DNA of 40,613 bases. Source: a virus. Taxonomy: Duplodnaviria; Caudoviricetes. The position numbers were made by a program, and so were the translations under genes. Below the pieces are notes generated by a model. It did not search any database and was not told where the DNA came from. It saw only the letters and a list, made by a program, of their open reading frames with translations. Within the stretch, counting starts at the first letter, position 1. Each line of letters starts with the position of its first letter. Where the stretch lies: positions 1 to 40,613 of the IMG/VR virus record IMGVR_UViG_3300011427_000005. One strand, written 5' to 3'. Below are positions 7,519-27,581 of this stretch, piece by piece.

Positions 7519-7596
7519 CCCTAACGGTTTGCGGGTTGATCTACATCGGACTTAGCGGCAACCGTAGCCGCCAATCCGCTGGACGCTGTGTTAGGT
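7519..7596 (-). repeat. attC-like site closing cassette 11 (degenerate: L' box missing)
   Basis: Minus strand ACCTAAC ACAGCG TCCAGCGG ... CCCGCAAACC GTTAGGG; R'' and R' present, CCGCTAA arm absent. Confidence 0.65.
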
Positions 7597-7739
7597 GCGC
7601 TCTTGCGGATACTAAATCGAGCGTGACAAAAACGACACGCCGCTTTGCTGTATTCTTTCCATCCGCGTGCGTGTGCGTGGTCGGGGTGATGCAAACCCCT
7701 GCGACCACATTTCGGACATTTTACATTTTTGAAATTCAT
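7521..7739 (-). CDS. Cassette 11 gene, zinc-ribbon protein
   Basis: CPKC...CRFC; stop TAG lies in R' GTTAG. Confidence 0.7.
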   Translation of the reverse strand: MNFKNVKCPKCGRRGLHHPDHAHARGWKEYSKAACRFCHARFSIRKSAPNTASSGLAATVAAKSDVDQPANR

Positions 7740-7813
7740 TTAGCACCTATTTCTCCGCAATACATGGACAACGCAAGCTCAACATGTCCATTTTGAATTC
7801 CTTCTCTGGCAAT

Positions 7814-7927
7814 GCGTTACTGGCGGGCGTGCCCACAATTGGGACACTCAGAGAAAGACCCGCCGATTTGACGATTATCACAATTTGCACAGTCCCAAAG
7901 CCCGTCCAGTGCACGCTGGGGTTGGGC
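7814..7927 (-). repeat. attC-like site closing cassette 10 (degenerate: R' lost)
   Basis: GCCCAAC CCCAGCG TGCACTGG ACGGGC ... GCCCG CCAGTAA CGC, with no GTT core after it. Confidence 0.7.
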
Positions 7928-8080
7928 AGACTTTGCGACCGCGACGATATTTTGAAATGCTTTTTGAACATCATAAACGGTTAAACCAGACCAAGTCTCA
8001 GCCAATTGCTCGATTACCCTCAGGGCATTATCTTGGCGGGCGATTTCTGCCATTGCGTCTTGTAAACTTCTTATTGGCAT
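7817..8080 (-). CDS. Cassette 10 gene; C-terminal CxxC...CxxC encoded inside the attC
   Basis: GGAGAGG RBS; 87 aa; stop TAA is the L' TAA. Confidence 0.7.
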   Translation of the reverse strand: MPIRSLQDAMAEIARQDNALRVIEQLAETWSGLTVYDVQKAFQNIVAVAKSAQPQRALDGLWDCANCDNRQIGGSFSECPNCGHARQ

Positions 8081-8102
8081 TGTTTCCTCTCCTTCGGGGT
8101 CT

Positions 8103-8229
8103 GCCCAACTCTTGCGTTACCCGCTTGTGGGCGGGGTGGATAAATGCCCAGCGGGTGTATCCGCTTCGGGCGTGGATAATGATGGGAGCGGCGCAGAATC
8201 CCACAAGTCGGCTTCACGCTGTGTTGGGC
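8103..8229 (-). repeat. attC site closing cassette 9 (127 bp)
   Basis: GCCCAAC ACAGCG TGAAGCCG ACTTGTGGG ... CCCACAAG CGGGTAA CGCAAGA GTTGGGC. Confidence 0.9.
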
Positions 8230-8407
8230 GGCTGTTACACCTTAGACACCCAACGGCGTCGGAATCTTCATATTCCCATTGCTGACCTTTGCGAGCCATC
8301 AATTTACTTACAACCATACCGCACAAAGTTTTACTGCCGTCTTGCGTAAGCGCATGAGACACAAACTTTTCAGTACCAGCGTAAGCCCAATTTCCGATTA
8401 TTTCCAT
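8117..8407 (-). CDS. Cassette 9 gene, hypothetical (H...TLCG...CLRC metal-binding motif)
   Basis: Start MEIIGNW just after cassette start; stop is the L' TAA. Confidence 0.65.
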   Translation of the reverse strand: MEIIGNWAYAGTEKFVSHALTQDGSKTLCGMVVSKLMARKGQQWEYEDSDAVGCLRCNSRPTQREADLWDSAPLPSLSTPEADTPAGHLSTPPTSG

Positions 8408-8415
8408 AATGAGCC

Positions 8416-8470
8416 GCCTAACGGGGCGCGCGATAAGCTGCACGAATGCTCGTGACAGCCGATTTCGGAC
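8416..8470 (-). repeat. attC-like half site closing cassette 8 (R''/L'' arm degenerate)
   Basis: Minus GCTGTCACGA GCAT TCGTGCAGC TTA TCGCGCGCCCC GTTAGGC; no AAC-containing R''. Confidence 0.6.
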
Positions 8471-8795
8471 GCCCGCCATGTTTGCCATTGGCGGCTGATG
8501 ATTTAGATTTCTTTTTCGATTTCATAGAGCCGAGCAAAGCGCCTGCATCAGATGACGATATTTTTGATTTATCCTGATTTGCAATAACCCATTCTAAAAT
8601 TTCATGTACTGATGATTTGATTACCCATTGCAAATGCTCATCACCTTCATTCCAGTCAGCCAAAATAAAATCAGAATGACGCGCCAGTGATGGGCGGTTC
8701 ATAACTCTGTTTTTTGCTTTGTCAAAAAGGTTCATTGCTAATCTGGGGTTTTTTCTGTCATTTGCTTTCTGTGCTGTGTAGTTGATTTCGTCCAT
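8418..8795 (-). CDS. Cassette 8 gene, basic C-terminal SxxNGxxGGRP motif, putative DNA-binding autoregulator
   Basis: AAGGAG RBS, start MDEINY; ALLGSMKSKKKSKSSAANGKHGGRPK. Confidence 0.65.
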   Translation of the reverse strand: MDEINYTAQKANDRKNPRLAMNLFDKAKNRVMNRPSLARHSDFILADWNEGDEHLQWVIKSSVHEILEWVIANQDKSKISSSDAGALLGSMKSKKKSKSSAANGKHGGRPKSAVTSIRAAYRAPR

Positions 8796-8825
8796 CGTTT
8801 CATCTCCTTGTTTATTGATACCCGT

Positions 8826-8854
8826 ATTATATAACCTATCGTTAGGTTTGTCAA
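8826..8854 (-). promoter_or_regulatory. Sigma70 promoter of cassette 8 with palindromic operator
   Basis: TTGACA-17-TATAAT perfect consensus; spacer contains AACCTA-ACGA-TAGGTT. Confidence 0.85.
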
Positions 8855-8913
8855 GGGTAAACAGGGAACTCGTTTTCTCGGTTTTTGCACGAAACCATGA
8901 ACGCGGAGCAAAC

Positions 8914-9038
8914 AGCCAACGGTTTGCGTTAGGCGCTCGGCGGGTTACGCCGGACACTTACGCCAAAAAGTTGCTCAATAAGCCCCGAACCTTCGCTTTC
9001 GGAGGCGATAGCCGAGTCGCCTGCACGCGATGTTAGGC
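8914..9038 (-). repeat. attC site closing cassette 7 (125 bp)
   Basis: GCCTAAC ATCGCG TGCAGGCG ACTCGGC ... GCCGAG CGCCTAA CGCAAACC GTTGGCT. Confidence 0.9.
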
Positions 9039-9222
9039 GGCTCTCTGGCTGGTGGAGGAAAATTTGAGTAGCACAGCACTTCGGGCAAACAGTTCCTGCT
9101 TCCCATTCCCACCACCAGCATAATTTCCCTGGGTGGTCGTTGCATATTTTCACGTTTCCCGTGAGCGTTCCGAAAATTGGTTCACCGCAAGGGCACGGGG
9201 ACACGCCGAGATTTTTAGCCAT
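8929..9222 (-). CDS. Cassette 7 gene, Cys-rich hypothetical
   Basis: AAAGGA RBS, MAKNLG; CPCG...CPKC; stop is the L' TAA. Confidence 0.7.
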   Translation of the reverse strand: MAKNLGVSPCPCGEPIFGTLTGNVKICNDHPGKLCWWWEWEAGTVCPKCCATQIFLHQPESRLTSRAGDSAIASESEGSGLIEQLFGVSVRRNPPSA

Positions 9223-9245
9223 GTGATTTCCTTTCGGGCGCATCC

Positions 9246-9375
9246 GCCCAACGGCTTAGATTACCCGCACCTGAGCGGGCTTGGATTCGCTGTCCGACTG
9301 AGATAAATTATCGGCGTTGACAACTGCTTGAGATGACGCCAGACTCTCAGGCGTCGGGCGCATCTTTTGTTCGGC
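9246..9375 (-). repeat. attC site closing cassette 6 (130 bp)
   Basis: GCCGAAC AAAAGA TGCGCCCG ACGCCTGAG ... CTCAGGTG CGGGTAA TCTAAGCC GTTGGGC. Confidence 0.88.
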
Positions 9376-9552
9376 GGCAACACGATCAAAATACCCATTC
9401 ATTTCGATCTTGGGTTGACCATCACACGGCGTATAAAAAACGGAAGAAACGCCGTGGTGGTGGTTATAGCACCAGCCACAAGCCACTCTGCCGCAGTGTT
9501 TACAACGTGTGCCCCGTTTTATTTCATTGCCACAATCATCACATTTTTTCAT
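9256..9552 (-). CDS. Cassette 6 gene, zinc-finger protein
   Basis: AAGGAG RBS; CDDC, CKHC, CGWC, HHH; reads through the attC. Confidence 0.75.
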   Translation of the reverse strand: MKKCDDCGNEIKRGTRCKHCGRVACGWCYNHHHGVSSVFYTPCDGQPKIEMNGYFDRVAAEQKMRPTPESLASSQAVVNADNLSQSDSESKPAQVRVI

Positions 9553-9573
9553 ATCGCTCCTTTTGGAAGTGCC

Positions 9574-9665
9574 GCCGAACGGTTTGCGTTACCCGCAGGG
9601 GCGGATAACAACATAATTGATTTAGAGCCTACGCCCGCCCTTGTCGGGTGGACGCTTTGTTGAGC
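9574..9665 (-). repeat. attC site closing cassette 5 (92 bp)
   Basis: GCTCAAC AAAGCG TCCACCCG ACAAGGGCG ... CGCCCCTG CGGGTAA CGCAAACC GTTCGGC. Confidence 0.9.
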
Positions 9666-9819
9666 GCATGACTTTTACGCGGAACTGTGCGCCCTTCAAA
9701 ATATCTGCGTGCCGAACAATAGCAATGATGTTCCACGCTTTTTCACGAGTATCAACGGGTGGATAAGATATACCTACCCACTTTTTTCCATCTAACGAGC
9801 ATTGCGCTTTATATTTCAT
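9622..9819 (-). CDS. Cassette 5 gene, hypothetical
   Basis: MKYKAQC, 65 aa; GGAG Shine-Dalgarno supplied by the R' sequence GTTGGAG. Confidence 0.65.
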   Translation of the reverse strand: MKYKAQCSLDGKKWVGISYPPVDTREKAWNIIAIVRHADILKGAQFRVKVMRSTKRPPDKGGRRL

Positions 9820-9825
9820 GTGTCG

Positions 9826-9952
9826 CTCCAACGGTTTGCGTTAGCGGCGGGTGGATGGCTTGGTTGAAGCCTTCCGAGCCGATAACTTTTTGGGATTGGA
9901 TAATGTTTGAGGCGGAGACAGCACCACCCGCCCGCTGCACGCTTTGTTAGCC
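9826..9952 (-). repeat. attC site closing cassette 4 (127 bp)
   Basis: GGCTAAC AAAGCG TGCAGCGG GCGGGTGG ... CCACCCG CCGCTAA CGCAAACC GTTGGAG. Confidence 0.9.
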
Positions 9953-10074
9953 GCCGCCACAACGAACACGGCGATTTGCGAGCCACGACCCCTACTTACA
10001 CGGAAGCCACATTGACGGGCAGCTTCCGTGATTTGTGTATATGCTTCGTCGGTGAAATAAATTGACTTAGGCAT
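9841..10074 (-). CDS. Cassette 4 gene B, ribbon-helix-helix-like regulator
   Basis: MPKSIYFTDEAYTQITEAARQCG (short strand + helix); stop is the L' TAA. Confidence 0.6.
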   Translation of the reverse strand: MPKSIYFTDEAYTQITEAARQCGFRVSRGRGSQIAVFVVAAANKACSGRVVLSPPQTLSNPKKLSARKASTKPSTRR

Positions 10075-10364
10075 TAGACATCCCAATATTCACAATACCC
10101 GTCGCCTTCTTCAATCCACGCTCCGCAGGTATTGTGATCGCACTCTTGCAACCCAACGGCAGATGATTGTAAATCTTCAAATGCTTCATCATAAAGATTT
10201 GAAGCGCCTCCGCTTGCCCAGGCAGTGACTAATTCGTGATTGCCGCCAAAGTTTTTACCTTGCGGTGCAGTAATGTGGACTGTCTGGTATCTACCATCTT
10301 CAAGATTGACTTCAACGCTGCAACTAAGAGCTTCGACTTTCTGAATGAGTTGTTTTTTGTTCAT
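10074..10364 (-). CDS. Cassette 4 gene A, acidic hypothetical
   Basis: AGGAG RBS, MNKKQLIQ; TAATG coupling to gene B. Confidence 0.7.
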   Translation of the reverse strand: MNKKQLIQKVEALSCSVEVNLEDGRYQTVHITAPQGKNFGGNHELVTAWASGGASNLYDEAFEDLQSSAVGLQECDHNTCGAWIEEGDGYCEYWDV

Positions 10365-10384
10365 GACTAATCTCCTATAAAACA

Positions 10385-10413
10385 ATTATATCACATAATC
10401 TATAGATTGTCAA
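10385..10413 (-). promoter_or_regulatory. Sigma70 promoter of cassette 4 with palindromic operator
   Basis: TTGACA-17-TATAAT; palindrome AATCTATAGATT overlapping the -35 box and spacer. Confidence 0.85.
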
Positions 10414-10490
10414 ATCCCATATTCGGGAAGTATGAAAATCTCCATAGGTAAATGACGGTCTGCTATACAAACTCGTTTTGCAGGTGGGCG

Positions 10491-10603
10491 GTCTAACGGC
10501 TGTATTAGCCGGTTTGCGCGGGCAAGACAACCTTTGATTTACGAACACGACTGCGGGCAGAAACGCGACGCCCACGAGGAGAAGGCTGAATACTTTGTTC
10601 GGC
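10491..10603 (-). repeat. attC site closing cassette 3 (113 bp)
   Basis: GCCGAAC AAAGTA TTCAGCC ... GGCTAA TACAGCC GTTAGAC. Confidence 0.82.
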
Positions 10604-10723
10604 GGGCGACACTGCCCACAGAACAAATCTTTGCAAAACCGCATCGCCTTTACAACGAGAACATTTGCGCCAGTTCATTGTTTGGCAATCACAGCGCGGG
10701 CAATACCATAAAGTTATTTCCAT
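10505..10723 (-). CDS. Cassette 3 gene, zinc-ribbon protein
   Basis: GAGG RBS, MEITLWYCPRC...CSRC; stop is the L' TAA. Confidence 0.7.
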   Translation of the reverse strand: MEITLWYCPRCDCQTMNWRKCSRCKGDAVLQRFVLWAVSPAEQSIQPSPRGRRVSARSRVRKSKVVLPAQTG

Positions 10724-10743
10724 GAAACCTCTGCAAAGTAGCC

Positions 10744-10847
10744 GCCGAACGGTTTGCGTTAGCGGCGGCGAGTGAGAAACCACCACCGCCTATGCAAAAT
10801 GATTTTGACCTACTCGGCTTCGCCGTCCGCTTCATGCTGTGTTGGCT
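10744..10847 (-). repeat. attC site closing cassette 2 (104 bp)
   Basis: AGCCAAC ACAGCA TGAAGCGG ACGGCGA ... TCGCCG CCGCTAA CGCAAACC GTTCGGC. Confidence 0.9.
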
Positions 10848-11172
10848 GTGTTTTCGCAGGACGACCACTACTGAGACGACCATTGATGCGGCTCTGCTCT
10901 GAGCGTTTTTCGCTTTTGATCGCTCGCAGTTTTGCGGCGGCGGCTGATTGATTGGCTCTGTCCATTTCAGACGAGCATTCATCGGCGGTGAGATTTTCGC
11001 CGTACTCTGATTTCAATCTGCGGGCGATGGTTTTCCATTCATCTGTTCCGTGATCGGCTGGCTCACATGATCCGTATCGAGCGGCGTAGACCATAGCGGC
11101 GGCGAGTGTAAAACCTACACTCGCATTCGGGTTCTGTTCCAATATGCGGCGGTAGTGCTGTTCGTTTCTCAT
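10810..11172 (-). CDS. Cassette 2 gene C, C-terminal SxxNGxxxxGRP motif, putative autoregulator
   Basis: GGAG RBS, MRNEQ; AAAKLRAIKSEKRSEQSRINGRLSSGRP resembles the cassette 8 C-terminus. Confidence 0.65.
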   Translation of the reverse strand: MRNEQHYRRILEQNPNASVGFTLAAAMVYAARYGSCEPADHGTDEWKTIARRLKSEYGENLTADECSSEMDRANQSAAAAKLRAIKSEKRSEQSRINGRLSSGRPAKTQPTQHEADGEAE

Positions 11173-11174
11173 GG

Positions 11175-11639
11175 CTATTCTCCACAGTGACAATGTTTAT
11201 CGAGACAATATTCGCAATCCAAACACACGGGTTCATTATCGCAACCATGTTTTGAGCATGTCTCCCAGAGTTGTCCGCTGGATTTGCGTTTGCTGAATTG
11301 AGGAACAAAACTATCGGTTTCGGTGTGGATGTTGAAATCATCACTGCCTGCTCCGCCAATTCCTAGACCGCTGGAAATGTCCATAGATTGCCATTCACGA
11401 ACAACTGTCATTTTCTCGGCGGGTGTGGGAGCGTCACATAAAACGATTTCATTTTCGCCACCGAGACCGCCGTGCAATCCTGTTCGAGCATTGCGATATA
11501 CAATACCAGGGTATCTCATCCAGTCGGCTGGGCGATTGTCGTCAACGCATTCCAGCACATCGGTCTCATCGTATTTACTGGGCTGTCCACGATAGATGAG
11601 TTTGAAAAATTGTCCGTTGGTCAATTGATTTGCATTCAT
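11175..11639 (-). CDS. Cassette 2 gene B, Cys-rich C-terminus
   Basis: 154 aa; CSKHGCDNEPVCLDCEYCLDKHCHC. Confidence 0.7.
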   Translation of the reverse strand: MNANQLTNGQFFKLIYRGQPSKYDETDVLECVDDNRPADWMRYPGIVYRNARTGLHGGLGGENEIVLCDAPTPAEKMTVVREWQSMDISSGLGIGGAGSDDFNIHTETDSFVPQFSKRKSSGQLWETCSKHGCDNEPVCLDCEYCLDKHCHCGE

Positions 11640-11650
11640 GGTTTCGTTTC

Positions 11651-11992
11651 CTATCTACGGCTGGCAGTCCAGCGGGCGCGGTGTGCCTGATTGCGGCGGC
11701 TGAGATATGCGTTCACATCGGAGAACGCTTTTTCGGTGGATGAAAAATCAATTTTTCCAATCTGATTTTCAAAACCGTATGCGCCAGTTGCCTGTGCCAG
11801 TTTGTTGAGAATGACGGTCTCGCGGGCGTAGCGTGTGACCTGCTCATCGGTCGGGGTGCGGTTTCCGTAGTACGCCAGGCTGGTTCGCGCTTTTTCCGGA
11901 TTGAGTGCCTGACCATCTGCGGCGGCGATTGCGTTCTGAACCAGTTCTGCTACGTTGTATTCTGCGCCTTTTATTTGTCGTTTTGTGTTCAT
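11651..11992 (-). CDS. Cassette 2 gene A, hypothetical
   Basis: AGGAG RBS directly after the promoter; 113 aa. Confidence 0.7.
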   Translation of the reverse strand: MNTKRQIKGAEYNVAELVQNAIAAADGQALNPEKARTSLAYYGNRTPTDEQVTRYARETVILNKLAQATGAYGFENQIGKIDFSSTEKAFSDVNAYLSRRNQAHRARWTASRR

Positions 11993-12021
11993 GTTTTTCT
12001 CCTGTATTGATTGATAACAGG

Positions 12022-12051
12022 ATTATAAACCCAACGTCGGGATATTGTCAA
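12022..12051 (-). promoter_or_regulatory. Sigma70 promoter of cassette 2 with palindromic operator
   Basis: TTGACA-18-TATAAT; imperfect palindrome CCCGACGTTGGG in the spacer. Confidence 0.8.
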
Positions 12052-12120
12052 GGGTAAACAGGAAACTCGTTTTACTCGGTTTACTCGGTTTTTGCACGAA
12101 ACCATGAACGCGGAGCAAAC

Positions 12121-12241
12121 AGCCAACGGTTTGCGTTAGTGGTGTGGCTGAGAGCCAGCATCACGAGCGCAACTAATTCGAGATTGGATCACTACCAGCG
12201 GGAGGTGAATCAGCCACATCCACTGCACGCAGATGTTCTAC
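12121..12241 (-). repeat. attC site closing cassette 1 (121 bp)
   Basis: GTAGAAC ATCTGCG TGCAGTGG ATGTGGCTGA ... TCAGCCACA CCACTAA CGCAAACC GTTGGCT. Confidence 0.88.
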
Positions 12242-12364
12242 GGCTTGCCTGTCTTGCTCAGCCCAAAATTCCTCTTTCGTCATTCTGGCTGACCATAGAT
12301 AGATTGCAAACGCAACCCAACCGACCCACTCACGCACATTATCAAAAAAACTTGGTTTACCCAT
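12173..12364 (-). CDS. Cassette 1 gene, small protein with Trp-rich hydrophobic segment
   Basis: AAGGAG RBS; 63 aa; WVGWVAFAIYLW. Confidence 0.7.
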   Translation of the reverse strand: MGKPSFFDNVREWVGWVAFAIYLWSARMTKEEFWAEQDRQAVEHLRAVDVADSPPAGSDPISN

Positions 12365-12386
12365 AACACTCCTTTATAAGATAGCC

Positions 12387-12425
12387 GTAGAACTATTGTA
12401 TTAACTGCAACGTATGAACATAATA
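12387..12425 (-). other. attI-like primary recombination site
   Basis: Minus ATGTTCATACGTTGCAGTTAATACAATAGTTCTAC: non-hairpin, AT-rich L-spacer-GTT core with upstream GTT repeats; GTTCTACGGC complements R'' of the first attC. Confidence 0.7.
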
Positions 12426-12743
12426 TCATGGTTCTAATTCTGCGTCAAGGGCGCGGCGAACAAGTTGCGACTGCATCCCGGGAAGCGGCGAGCGTTTTTC
12501 CAACGCTGTTTTTTGCCTGCGCGTGATCCAGAACGTAGCCCGAACCATATCATTATTTTTTGCGCCGACTCTGATAATGGAATATGCCTTACTGCCATCT
12601 ACCTTATCATTGATGACGTACAGTGATTTTAGATTACAAGTCCCGCAGCGGCTATACAATCGCGCTCCGGTTGGCTGGGGGGATTGCAGAGTCTTGCATC
12701 CGCAATGTGGGCAGGGCTGAGATAAATATTTTTTGTATTTCAT
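12426..12743 (-). CDS. Zinc ribbon + RHH-like DNA-binding protein
   Basis: CPHC...CGTC; C-terminal MVRATFWITRRQKTALEK...QSQLVRRALD. Confidence 0.6.
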   Translation of the reverse strand: MKYKKYLSQPCPHCGCKTLQSPQPTGARLYSRCGTCNLKSLYVINDKVDGSKAYSIIRVGAKNNDMVRATFWITRRQKTALEKRSPLPGMQSQLVRRALDAELEP

Positions 12744-22980: not shown

Positions 22981-23748
22981 ATGAGTAATTCTAACATGAG
23001 TGTAAGCGGGATTTATAAGATTACAAATACTGCCAACGGAAAAATTTACGTGGGGAGTTCTGTTAATATCATGGATAGGTGGAATAGACACAAAAGTCAG
23101 TTGAGAAATAACATACATAAAAACGGACGCTTACAAAACGCATGGAATAAATACGGCGCAGATTGTTTTTATATTTCCGTTATTGAGCAGTGTTTCGTTT
23201 TTGCCTTAATATTTCGGGAGCAGTATTACATAAATATATTGAGACCTGAATATAATATTGCACTAAAGGCAGGGAGCACTCTAGGCGTACGACCGTCCCC
23301 AGAGACTCTTGTCATAATGTCGAATGTTCAAAAAGGTAAAAAACATTCCCTAGAAACGCGCGCTAAAATGTCTGCGTCAGCAAAGGGAAAAACAAGATCA
23401 GCGGAAACCCGTGCTAAAATGTCGATAGCTTCTAAAAACCAAACCCCAGAACGTAGAGCGAAAACAGCAGCAAGAAATAGGGCAAGGATATTTACTACTG
23501 AAATTCTTGCAAAGATGTCGGCTGCTGCTAAAAACATTTCCGATGAAACGCGTGCCAAGATGTCGGCTTCTCACATGGGAAAACCAAGCGGAAGAAAAGG
23601 ACAACCTGTACCGCAAGATGTTAGATTGAAAATATCAGCGTCTCTGACTGGTAAAAAACTTAGTGCCGAGACGATTGCCAAGTTATCTAATTCTCAAAAA
23701 ATAGCCTGGCTGAAGCGTAAGCAGAAAGATGAAAACAGAGAAAAATAA
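22981..23748 (+). CDS. Free-standing GIY-YIG homing endonuclease with NUMOD3 repeats
   Basis: SGIYKITNTANGKIYVGSS, REQYYI, YNI; repeated ETRAKMS. Confidence 0.92.
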   Translation: MSNSNMSVSGIYKITNTANGKIYVGSSVNIMDRWNRHKSQLRNNIHKNGRLQNAWNKYGADCFYISVIEQCFVFALIFREQYYINILRPEYNIALKAGSTLGVRPSPETLVIMSNVQKGKKHSLETRAKMSASAKGKTRSAETRAKMSIASKNQTPERRAKTAARNRARIFTTEILAKMSAAAKNISDETRAKMSASHMGKPSGRKGQPVPQDVRLKISASLTGKKLSAETIAKLSNSQKIAWLKRKQKDENREK

Positions 23749-24362: not shown

Positions 24363-25735
24363 CAATCGCGCATAAATTCAAGCTCCCGATAACGACTGAG
24401 GAAACGCTAAAGCAATTTTTAAGGGTTGCATGGGGTGTAACCATCCCGGACAAACAGATATGCAAAAATCATACGACTCCCTGGCGGGCGTTTAGTGACG
24501 CATATTTCGCGCGGCATCCTGTAACCGTCTGGCACGGCTCGCGCGGTTTTGCCGGCAAGTCATATACTCTGGCTGTGCTGGGATTGACCGAAGCCGCAAC
24601 GCTGGGGGCGGCTGTGAACATCCTGGGCAGTTCCGGCGCTCAATCCAAGAGGGTGCTCGAGCATGAAACGAACCTATGGCATTACAAGCACGCACCGCGT
24701 GATCTGCTTATCTCTGATGCGTCCAGCGTTACACGATTAACAAACGGCGCAAAAATCGAGGCGCTTATGGCATCGCAGGCGAGCGTTCGGGGTCCGCATC
24801 CGCAAAGGCTTTTACTGGACGAAATCGATGAAATGGATTTATCCATTCTTGAAGCCGCCCAGGGGCAGCCAATGGAAAAAAACGGCATAGCGACTCAGAC
24901 GGTTATGTCTTCAACCCGTCAATATGCGGACGGCACAATGCAGAAAATATTACAGCGGGCGGGAGAACAAGGCTGGAAAATATATGAATGGTGCATGGAG
25001 GAAACGAAAGAGCCGCATGGCTGGCTATCACAAGCACAGATAGACTCCAAACGCGCCGAAGTTACTGAAGCCATGTGGAGGACTGAATACGAATTACAGG
25101 AACCGTCACCAGAGTCCAGAGCCATCCAATCGGAGGCGGTTGAGAAGTGTTTTGATAAATCACTCGGAGTCTTTGAAGGCAATCTGAATGAATATATCGA
25201 GATTGAAAATCCTGTAAAGGGCGCGTCCTATTCTCACGGCGCGGATTGGGCGCGAAAGAACGACTGGACAATCATTCCTACCATTCGGGAGGATGTCCGA
25301 CCGCGCCGGGTTGTGGCATGGGAACGCACAGGTCGGCTTGACTGGCCCGTGATGATTACCAAACTGGACAAACGAATTGAACGCTATGGCGGGTATGCCG
25401 TGCATGATGGTACTGGCTTGGGGGATGTGGTCGATGATTACCTAAAGCATCCCGCCGAAGCGTTTATGATGGCAGGACGGGCGCGCGCGGATCTACTGAG
25501 TGAATACATCGCAGCGATTGAAAAGGGCGAGCTTGTTTATCCGTTCATCCAATACGCCTATAACGAGCATAAGTACGCATCCGTGGAGGATGTTTATTCA
25601 AGTGGGGAGGGGCATCATTTACCGGACTCAATCAGCGCCGGCGCGTTTATGTGGCGCGCATCCAATTCCAGCGGGGCGGTAGATCCTTCGGTCGGTCATG
25701 TAGACGACTTCAAGTCGAAATGGGAGCGGGTATGA
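24359..25735 (+). CDS. terL: Terminase large subunit
   Basis: Walker A GSRGFAGKS, Walker B LLLDEIDE, RuvC-like GADWARKND, DGTGLG, final PDS. Confidence 0.92.
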   Translation: MTIAHKFKLPITTEETLKQFLRVAWGVTIPDKQICKNHTTPWRAFSDAYFARHPVTVWHGSRGFAGKSYTLAVLGLTEAATLGAAVNILGSSGAQSKRVLEHETNLWHYKHAPRDLLISDASSVTRLTNGAKIEALMASQASVRGPHPQRLLLDEIDEMDLSILEAAQGQPMEKNGIATQTVMSSTRQYADGTMQKILQRAGEQGWKIYEWCMEETKEPHGWLSQAQIDSKRAEVTEAMWRTEYELQEPSPESRAIQSEAVEKCFDKSLGVFEGNLNEYIEIENPVKGASYSHGADWARKNDWTIIPTIREDVRPRRVVAWERTGRLDWPVMITKLDKRIERYGGYAVHDGTGLGDVVDDYLKHPAEAFMMAGRARADLLSEYIAAIEKGELVYPFIQYAYNEHKYASVEDVYSSGEGHHLPDSISAGAFMWRASNSSGAVDPSVGHVDDFKSKWERV

Positions 25736-26709
25736 TGTATCTGTTATCATCCTTGACCCGTCTTGTAGATATGAAAAAAATCATCAATTCTCTGTTCGTC
25801 GCCATCGTAACTTTTGCCTACGCATCGGTGTATTGGTTGGGTGCTCGTAATATGCAGGATGCTGAGTCTATGACATCGCTTGGATATTACAAGCCTTACG
25901 TGTACAGGCAGCTCGTGCCCATGCTTGCGCGGGCATTGGAGTCCATCGGTATCAGGATTGACCTTGCGGTGGTATTGATCGTCACGCTTTCGGGGGTCGG
26001 CTTTTATCTTGCCCTGCGGAGTCTGGTAGCTCTTTATCACCCCATGACCAACACAACGGAGATAATCGTCCTGTTGTCTGTGTTCGCCGGGATGCTCCTG
26101 TTCGGCGATTTTCGGATGCCGTATGATTTGATGACGGCGGCATTGTTCACGCTGGCGTTCTTGTTCATTGCACGGGGAGAGACCCGGAATTATCTACTCC
26201 TGTTCCCGTTCATTTGTCTCAATCGTGAGACGGCGATATTGCTGCCAATTGTTTATGTAGCCTTTGCCTATGTCTGGAAGCGGGGGAATCTCAAACAGAA
26301 TTCAATCGTGTTTGTTTACAGCCTCGGAGTCTATCTTCTAATCACTCTCGCCTTGCGCCTGTACTTCGCAGGCAACCCCGGCTTATCGGCATGGGTTGAA
26401 CCATGGCTGAATATCCAGCGGTTTATCAATCACCCCGCAAAAAGCCTGCTACATCTATCAGGTACAATCATACTGCTGTACCTGATAGCAAACGACTGGA
26501 TGCAGAAGCCGGCACTATTGCGGATTGCGTTTATCTTCATGTTCCCGATACTGACCGGGATTTATTTCATAGCAGGACAAAGTTTTGAAGTGCGAGTCTA
26601 TTTCGAGTTGTATCCTGTGATCGTCCTGCTAGCATTGCCGGTTATATTGGAATGGATTACATGGCTAATTTTTACTTCCATAACCATCAGAGAAAAAGTG
26701 ACGCCCTAA
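25732..26709 (+). CDS. Polytopic membrane protein, GT-C glycosyltransferase-like
   Basis: About 9 TM segments; PYVYRQLVP, PYD, LNRET, FEVRVYFE. Confidence 0.55.
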   Translation: MMYLLSSLTRLVDMKKIINSLFVAIVTFAYASVYWLGARNMQDAESMTSLGYYKPYVYRQLVPMLARALESIGIRIDLAVVLIVTLSGVGFYLALRSLVALYHPMTNTTEIIVLLSVFAGMLLFGDFRMPYDLMTAALFTLAFLFIARGETRNYLLLFPFICLNRETAILLPIVYVAFAYVWKRGNLKQNSIVFVYSLGVYLLITLALRLYFAGNPGLSAWVEPWLNIQRFINHPAKSLLHLSGTIILLYLIANDWMQKPALLRIAFIFMFPILTGIYFIAGQSFEVRVYFELYPVIVLLALPVILEWITWLIFTSITIREKVTP

Positions 26710-27581
26710 TCACCGCGCTGATTGCGTACGGTTGGAAGCAGAAGCCGACTCATAATGGCGCGGATGTTATCTTTTCTGACCAGGACATCAAGGCAGGGTC
26801 AAAAGACCTTGAGAACGCATACAGACGCGGCAAAAAGGTTATGATGATTCCTCATGCAGCTATGCCAAATATATTTGGTGATCTGCCTGATGACGAACAC
26901 TTCAAACATGCAACCTGTCAATTCGTCCCGGCGCCTGGGTACGTGGACGTGATGCGGGCATGGGGATACAATCTCCCGATTGAGGTGACCGGCTGGTACC
27001 TTTGCGAGATAAAACCATTCCAGCCGCGCGCCGAAATAAGGAATGTCTTATTCGCACCCATCCATCCGAACGCCGACGGGATGCTCTCGCATCTCCAAAT
27101 AGACATCAATAAAACTGCCTACGAAAAACTACTGAGATTATCCGAACAGGGACACATCAATCTAACCGTTCGTCATTTGCAATCTCTTGAAAATAACGGA
27201 CTCTGGAATGTCGAGGGTGTGAAATACATTGCCGCCAAACCAGACCAAAGCACGAAAGATATAGACGCCGCTGATTTGGTTGTGACCAAGCAGACCATGC
27301 TATATCTCACAGTGGCGCGAGGCGTACCAGCCGTTGGCATGGGTGAGGATATGGCACCGCCGACTGGATCGCTGGCGCGTGGAAACTTCAAACAGGTAAA
27401 ATCCTGGGAAAAGTATCGGGCAATTATGTCATTCCCGCTGGACATCCTGACCTGTGACGATACGATGAATCTATTCAGGCGGGCGGGTGAGTCGGATGCG
27501 GATATAGCCGGCTGGCGCGAGCGGATGATAGGATTACCATTCGACCCGGTGCGGTTTGTGGCAATGGTAAATAAATATTAG
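26661..27581 (+). CDS. GT-B-fold glycosyltransferase-like protein
   Basis: VLFAPIHP; DIDAADLVVTKQTMLYLTVARGVPAV resembles the GT-B C-terminal motif. Confidence 0.55.
   Translation: MANFYFHNHQRKSDALITALIAYGWKQKPTHNGADVIFSDQDIKAGSKDLENAYRRGKKVMMIPHAAMPNIFGDLPDDEHFKHATCQFVPAPGYVDVMRAWGYNLPIEVTGWYLCEIKPFQPRAEIRNVLFAPIHPNADGMLSHLQIDINKTAYEKLLRLSEQGHINLTVRHLQSLENNGLWNVEGVKYIAAKPDQSTKDIDAADLVVTKQTMLYLTVARGVPAVGMGEDMAPPTGSLARGNFKQVKSWEKYRAIMSFPLDILTCDDTMNLFRRAGESDADIAGWRERMIGLPFDPVRFVAMVNKY

Follow-up and report, generated by a model that had tools for sequence, protein, structure and literature searches.

How does a phage that encodes no recognizable integrase come to carry a run of gene cassettes whose two ends fit one another? 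The question arises at IMG/VR virus record IMGVR_UViG_3300011427_000005 (G000), a linear virus contig of 40,613 nt, 61% complete by CheckV, which was analyzed in full and is called the window below. The window is a tailed phage, and among 63 open reading frames (ORFs) scanned against Pfam and PHROG are those for a terminase, a Mu-like portal and capsid, a DnaD-like protein, a repressor and a DNA methyltransferase. On its minus strand, 11 cassettes run from 12393 down to 7519, with c1 at the highest coordinate; they close a leftward gene block and meet the late genes head-on. ORF scans and six-frame searches of the contig revealed no tyrosine recombinase (PF00589 and TIGR02249 were both without a match), and no intI lies within the 28 kb upstream or the 7.5 kb downstream of the array that the contig covers. 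With ten paired attC sites, one decayed site and no intI nearby, the array is a cluster of attC sites lacking integron integrases (CALIN) with an attI-like head. It is not a complete integron, in which intI adjoins the array; none does so on this possibly incomplete contig. We consider it likely (probability roughly 0.8) that these are integron-type cassettes behind an attI-like site, probably inserted singly at G/TT by an IntI that is not encoded here and is most likely that of an Anaerolineales host.

The attC box names (R'', L'', L' and R') and the extrahelical-base (EHB) model used below are established integron knowledge. According to established integron biology, the folded bottom strand of a cassette attC would recombine with attI at G/TT, which would place the cassette's own TTNNNN at its start and leave its own R'' at its end. 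Here, a host IntI would act in trans, new cassettes would enter next to a Pc-like promoter, and they would be drawn from a phage-specific circulating pool. Recombination of these particular sites is a prediction from their sequence.

The ends of the cassettes carry the imprint expected of such insertions. Ten starts and eleven R'' boxes were fixed by hand, and each start was compared with the reverse complement of its own R''. The initial annotation had listed own-cassette matches of 9 nt for c2 and c3 and 11 nt for c6 and c10, with one mismatch each at c7 and c9 and one indel each at c4 and c5; all of these were recovered, the mismatches being A/G differences, whereas the match at c1, although real, is 11 rather than 10 nt long. 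The frequent disagreement between R'' and R' within the array that had been claimed is also present, with 16/36 variable bases matched in the in-array pairing versus 32/40 in the own-cassette pairing. The array itself had been placed at 7921..12393; the upper end was correct, but the lower end lies at 7519. Two checks had been proposed, a permutation of the start/R'' pairings and circularization in silico, and both came out in favor of the own pairing. Across all 10! pairings, 600 of 3,628,800 were as good as the true one when the four variable R-box bases were scored, 90/3,628,800 with eight bases, and 2,814/3,628,800 by run length. The attC reconstituted by circularization folds more stably than the in-array attC in 9/9 sites, by 0.5-9.3 kcal/mol, and the AAC of R'' pairs with the GTT of R' in all nine reconstituted hairpins. 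Pairing between L'' and L', with unpaired extra bases on the L'' arm and an unpaired central spacer, is clear at c1, c2, c4, c5, c7, c9 and c10 and irregular at c3, c6, c8 and c11. The attC lengths in the window, 71-130 nt, fall inside the published range of 57-141 nt (PMC5371416). Because a fold-only attC finder proved noisy, profiles were used instead. Matching ends alone would also suit inverted repeats, and the units might then be small non-integron elements bounded by such repeats, or terminator hairpins. We reject these as highly improbable, given hairpins that have two boxes and unpaired bases, sites that belong to a family found in host integrons, the attI-like site at the head of the array, and terminator-like sites that are not enriched (10 vs 7.2 +/- 2.7).

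How ordinary this fingerprint is became apparent from control arrays. These were gathered with four patterns and comprise, among the matches listed, 82 phage loci and 45 host loci; the loci overlap, and records do not equate to species. Control cassettes were called with profiles in which the four variable R-box bases were left unscored. A first version of the detector, which scored all positions, gave 0 false sites in 768 kb of shuffled DNA; the counts given here come from a later, masked version. A perfect own match was found in 184/262 phage cassettes versus 23/210 phage in-array pairs, and in 136/184 Anaerolineales host cassettes versus 33/151 host in-array pairs; in 2,000 within-locus shuffles, the highest share was 39% in phages and 46% in hosts. 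Taken alone, then, the fingerprint is ordinary: any integron array should have it, and it is just as common in host arrays. It follows from the known mechanism, because integration produces chimeric attC sites (PMC4889954). Nor are the non-canonical cores that the initial annotation singled out anything special here: GTTCGGC starts 30/262 phage cassettes, only 145/262 fit GTTRRRY, and published work gives just three bases as conserved at the cleavage site (PMC5371416). Matching ends show that both ends of a cassette travel together, but a circle and any other route that preserves the two ends would look alike. The initial annotation made no mention of the phage setting, the attI-like site or the reading of attC interiors as protein. 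The original interpretation, circle insertion by IntI at G/TT, was right in essence yet ordinary; its insertion part is supported more strongly by recurring cassettes, described next, and its circle part found no counterpart in a circle junction among the contigs of 8 sequencing runs.

Cassettes of this family recur in other phages with new neighbors. An all-against-all comparison yielded 31 cassette pairs covering at least 60%, of which 22 are phage-phage (four of them overlapping calls within one locus), nine host-host and none phage-host. In ten full-length viral pairs from different records, homology starts at G/TT: the first 100 nt are 77-97% alike, the upstream DNA is unrelated in all ten (26-46%), and so is the downstream DNA in the eight pairs where it could be measured (32-38%). 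A relative of c2 in locus L365 (82-83%) has another middle gene and other neighbors. The proteins of the window cassettes match viral loci only. Median cassette length is 290 nt in phages versus 711 nt in hosts. The 100 longest of 369 ORFs in the scanned phage cassettes include 26 that match methyltransferase families, together with two RNA ligases, RlaP, TROVE and an IntI-like protein. We infer that the source of the cassettes is not the host arrays but a pool in circulation among the phages of these hosts.

The attC family points to the host. Among the 80 genome loci listed for the attC pattern, most are from Anaerolineales or other Chloroflexota, and similar sites occur in at least 77 other viral records. 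An IntI-type gene lies beside the array in three of the 80 genome loci; the product of one of them, scanned with TIGR02249, reached 449 bits (cut-off 265). Sedentary chromosomal integrons of Anaerolineales (L161, L205 and L211) resemble the phage arrays in their attC arms, lead-site motif and own match. They differ in that the host intI is divergent, whereas a phage intI, where present, lies upstream and co-oriented; host interiors, meaning the part of attC between its R boxes, are also more uniform and mostly untranslated, and host cassettes are about 2.5 times longer. In one complete phage record (G033, loci L315 and L363), attC clusters stand on both strands.

These likenesses would also suit a block of a host chromosomal integron captured whole and carried as passive cargo. 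Block captures have been described in Vibrio and Shewanella prophages (Qi et al., PMC9892861), and a host-like interior is present in 9/324 phage sites. However, none of the 184 host cassettes compared is shared with a phage, the window cassette proteins find relatives only in viral loci, and phage cassettes, unlike those of host arrays, are short, with diverse interiors and ORFs that read through; the methyltransferase share of their cargo, counted in phage cassettes, may also speak against capture. We rejected block capture as very unlikely.

At the head of the array stands a candidate attI (12387..12409, minus strand; crossover after the G at 12393). A common motif ending AA...TAGTT lies upstream of the first cassette in 42 phage and 20 host loci. 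With the window excluded from training, the site at 12393 ranks 1 of 1,285 GTTs with either lead-site profile (phage, 42 loci; host, 20), and by sequence and position it would qualify as the attI of a complete integron. It scores 11.6 on the host profile, 11.3 on that of intI-less phages and 9.3 on that of intI-bearing phages. Across the family, phage lead sites without an adjacent intI are nearer the host profile (median 9.0 vs 3.1, p 0.004). A Pc-like sigma-70 promoter (12420..12448, minus strand; TTGACG-17-TATTAT) ends 27 nt upstream of the crossover G and overlaps the 3' end of an Arc-like repressor gene, itself a weak match (E 0.0044); the promoter is a 10/12 consensus match only.

Which enzyme would act on this site? 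TIGR02249 is matched above cut-off in 8/78 array records, one of them with an internal stop. Junctions read at L408, L412, L417, L362, L387 and L390 have intI upstream and co-oriented, ending 0-13 nt before the lead site; the recombinases that abut lead sites in relatives pass the IntI cut-off. Three phage IntI proteins are 48-56% identical to host IntI. At L408, L412 and L417, the stop codon of the phage intI lies inside the lead site, co-oriented with the array, unlike the divergent host layout. At L140:871-1908 (G023), an IntI-like gene (258 bits, slightly below cut-off) sits right behind an attC R' box, in the manner of a cassette. Against this background, the integrase could instead be the phage's own, encoded in the missing part of the contig or formerly present, or that of a co-infecting phage; the cassette mechanism would be the same and the enzyme source another. 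The 61% completeness means that intI could lie outside the contig, some relatives do encode the enzyme, and the lead site still scores on the profile of intI-bearing phages. On the other side, an Arc-like gene occupies the position at which the intI of relatives ends; the contig starts within what is likely the end of a tape-measure gene and closes behind a likely tail gene, so the gap may be small; and IntI is absent from 15/21 array records that are at least 90% complete (6/21 have it above cut-off). We therefore regard a phage-borne enzyme as a minority possibility, and the host enzyme as the likeliest source.

Several observations weigh against the interpretation of host-driven single insertions. 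The initial annotation had extended the end match to each cassette, which holds for those it listed; c8, which it left unmentioned, does not match itself (start GTTGGCT, R'' GGCAAAC), and c11, also passed over, is without an intact start (best 7/11 at 7751). The R' box of attC10 is missing. Among the ten starts, the own start is best or tied-best in only 5/9 folds, and the R'' of c7 fits the start of c9 better than its own. Because c8 fails, c7 prefers the c9 start, and attC10 and the c11 start have decayed, part of the array may be dead. The search patterns were derived from the window with some R-box letters fixed, and the pairs are not independent; the masked detector misses weak sites, and on the window it merged cassettes and called only 2/7 perfect. 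The lack of a circle junction, the score of 9.3 on the intI-bearing profile and the incompleteness of the contig belong here as well, as does the host assignment: Anaerolineales are a probable host, indicated by the attC family, with only 184 host cassettes compared. As to c7 and c9, the cross-match is 12 nt from the R'' of c7 (9032-9043) to the start of c9 (8411-8422) and 9 nt from the R'' of c9 to the start of c7; it is possibly due to chance, because their R boxes are the two commonest (61 and 42 of 262).

The interiors of the attC sites lie within reading frames and are predicted to be translated. All 11 terminal ORFs in the window run 9-37 codons past R'', and those of c3, c4, c7, c9 and c10 stop at the TAA of L'. 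The ORF is open at R'' in 194/211 phage versus 45/151 host cassettes, and 95 of these 194 phage cassettes stop at the L' TAA. The open frame that ends at the L' stop is continuous with the upstream ORF in 101/148 phage sites (chance about 38%) and 6/68 host sites. An in-frame CxxC-CxxC tail occurs in 13 phage cassettes, out of 15 such motifs in 1,266 frames, and in none from hosts.

The same interiors have also been re-paired with different genes. Among cross-record pairs, 69 share the interior only, 22 the front only and eight both, and identity switches at, or a few bases from, the AAC of R''. All five non-self homologues of c10 break at this AAC; four have the same front with other tails and one the same tail with another front. 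The 3' body of c4 is joined to a different attC interior in L399, and the interiors of c5 (88% identical, L368), c6 (89%, L370) and c9 (94%, L352) stand behind another gene. The second exchange implied by these pairs could be IntI acting on the top strand and swapping interiors at the AAC of R''. Consistent with, but not demonstrating, top-strand use, phage sites do not have the bottom-strand folding advantage of host sites, the bottom strand being the more stable in 98/211 phage versus 106/151 host attC sites; for standard sites, the reported top/bottom recombination ratio is roughly 1 in 1,000. Between top-strand IntI and short-homology recombination, the odds are about even. The main rival explanation for the interior swaps dispenses with IntI: both cassettes and interiors would be exchanged through homologous or short-homology recombination between the conserved arms of 20 nt. 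Breaks would fall near the same places, since the arms are conserved; in run X8, the sequence of a c2 relative departs 21 nt beyond the AAC; agreement with the interior is only partial at positions +2 and +3 (0.67 and 0.80 vs a background of 0.45 and 0.52); and a contig from run X5 skips c2-c7 across the c2/c8 repeat, possibly as an assembly artefact. Arm recombination leaves unexplained the attI-like site, the unpaired bases of L'' and the IntI abutting lead sites in relatives, and front-sharing pairs are already at background identity by +2 (0.36). As an explanation for the whole, we find it improbable.

The larger proposal, that phages of Anaerolineales run a two-crossover integron in which bottom-strand G/TT exchange moves cassettes and top-strand AA/C exchange swaps translated interiors in frame, is tentative, and we doubt it more than we believe it. 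Two results count against strong selection on the tails: substitutions between related interiors number 58, 46 and 62 by codon position, with no third-position excess, and 15/23 interior-sharing pairs enter the same frame (about 40% expected) but several read different frames. If true, the two-crossover proposal would amount to natural shuffling of protein domains by an integron, joining fronts to tails that are often zinc ribbons, and would make visible one way in which genes come by attC sites. How genes first do so has been called largely unknown (PMC5371416), and fronts and interiors re-paired at R'' would bear on one route, top-strand recombination by IntI. Synthetic attC sites placed in coding sequence (Nivina et al. 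2020, PMC7439510) likewise serve as both recombination site and protein code, with module shuffling proposed as a tool; those are engineered, whereas the phage version is natural, with a stop in L' and tails that include CxxC-CxxC. Gene and attC are not fixed partners in the model of group IIC-attC introns either (Leon and Roy 2009, via PMC3053210). There, however, an attC is added downstream of the terminator of a complete gene, whereas in the phages the junction falls within the ORF, at R''. Among the window ORFs, the Pfam and PHROG scans matched no reverse transcriptase.

Phage CALINs as such are known. Qi et al. 2023 (PMC9892861) reported 17 CALINs and 3 complete integrons in 10,705 phage genomes, likewise with co-oriented attC cassettes, no intI in the CALINs, and methyltransferase cargo; 5/6 of the phage attC sites tested recombined with IntI1, and the CALIN of Shewanella prophage M16-3 is headed by attI. 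The examples figured there are short, whereas the attC family studied here extends over 78 viral records, with a cassette pool in common, IntI in 8, and translated, re-paired interiors; the consulted parts of that paper describe none of these features. Our literature search, mostly of titles and abstracts, found no publication on Anaerolineales phage arrays or natural translated attC tails. Phage CALINs and the end-match fingerprint are known; the family-wide features (attC family, pool, and translated, re-paired interiors) appear to be new. They suggest that many phages may maintain an attI site and use a borrowed integrase to exchange their accessory genes in cassette form. Many of these genes encode DNA methyltransferases, and such an exchange would mirror the anti-phage cassettes of bacterial integrons.

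The individual cassettes, all on the minus strand, are as follows. Cassette c1 (12127..12392) has an ORF of 63 aa at 12173-12364, of which 20 codons lie beyond R'', and attC1 at 12121-12241. Three ORFs (11651-11992, 11175-11639 and 10810-11172) lie in c2 (10750..12126; attC2, 10744-10847), which carries its own promoter at 12022-12051, a 12/12 consensus match. The ORF of c3 (10497..10749) spans 10505-10723 and ends at the L' stop of attC3 (10491-10603). In c4 (9832..10496), the second of two ORFs (10074-10364 and 9841-10074) is the one that ends at the L' TAA of attC4 (9826-9952), and a further 12/12 promoter lies at 10385-10413. Next come c5 (9580..9831; ORF 9622-9819; attC5, 9574-9665) and c6 (9252..9579), whose ORF (9256-9552) reads nearly through attC6 (9246-9375). 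Cassette c7 (8920..9251) has its ORF at 8929-9222 and attC7 at 8914-9038; c8 (8422..8919) has an ORF at 8418-8795 that stops in R', an atypical attC8 at 8416-8486, and a 12/12 promoter at 8826-8854. The 5' end and promoter of c8 are related to those of c2. Cassette c9 (8109..8421; ORF 8117-8407; attC9, 8103-8229) is followed by c10 (7808..8108; ORF 7817-8080), where the attC10 interior encodes a CxxC-CxxC tail. Cassette c11 (7519..7751) retains an ORF at 7521-7739 and ends at attC11 (7519-7596), which is the end of the array. On the window cassette ORFs, Pfam and PHROG returned nothing below E 0.001.

An Rfam scan of the window gave 0 matches, and cultured phages gave no match. Relatives of the window terminase in viral contigs amount to six loci of 4-10 kb, with an attC site in none, and the terminase found 0 matches in 45 other array records, a comparison in which long queries can miss weak matches; varied virion modules among array-bearing phages are therefore suggested. 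Between terminase and portal, at 25651-27581, lie two ORFs (352 aa, hydrophobic; 309 aa) without a Pfam or PHROG match, and short repeats occur at 23331-23571 within a GIY-YIG/NUMOD3 homing endonuclease gene upstream of the terminase. About 65 nt at 7752-7816, where the R' of attC10 would be expected, hold a ribosome-binding site, a 14-codon ORF and a hairpin, and may be the remnant of a deleted cassette. The X5 contig, a single one at low depth, joins 8876 to 12084 across a 56-nt c2/c8 repeat, which could reflect excision, repeat recombination or the artefact mentioned above. At 8848-8932 and 12045-12139, c8 and c2 have in common 61 nt at the 5' end and a promoter stretch of 29 nt, but their genes differ; their terminal proteins both end with an NG..GRP motif. 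Loose ends in sequencing runs X4, X5, X6 and X8 suggest a wider family of such promoter-bearing cassettes.

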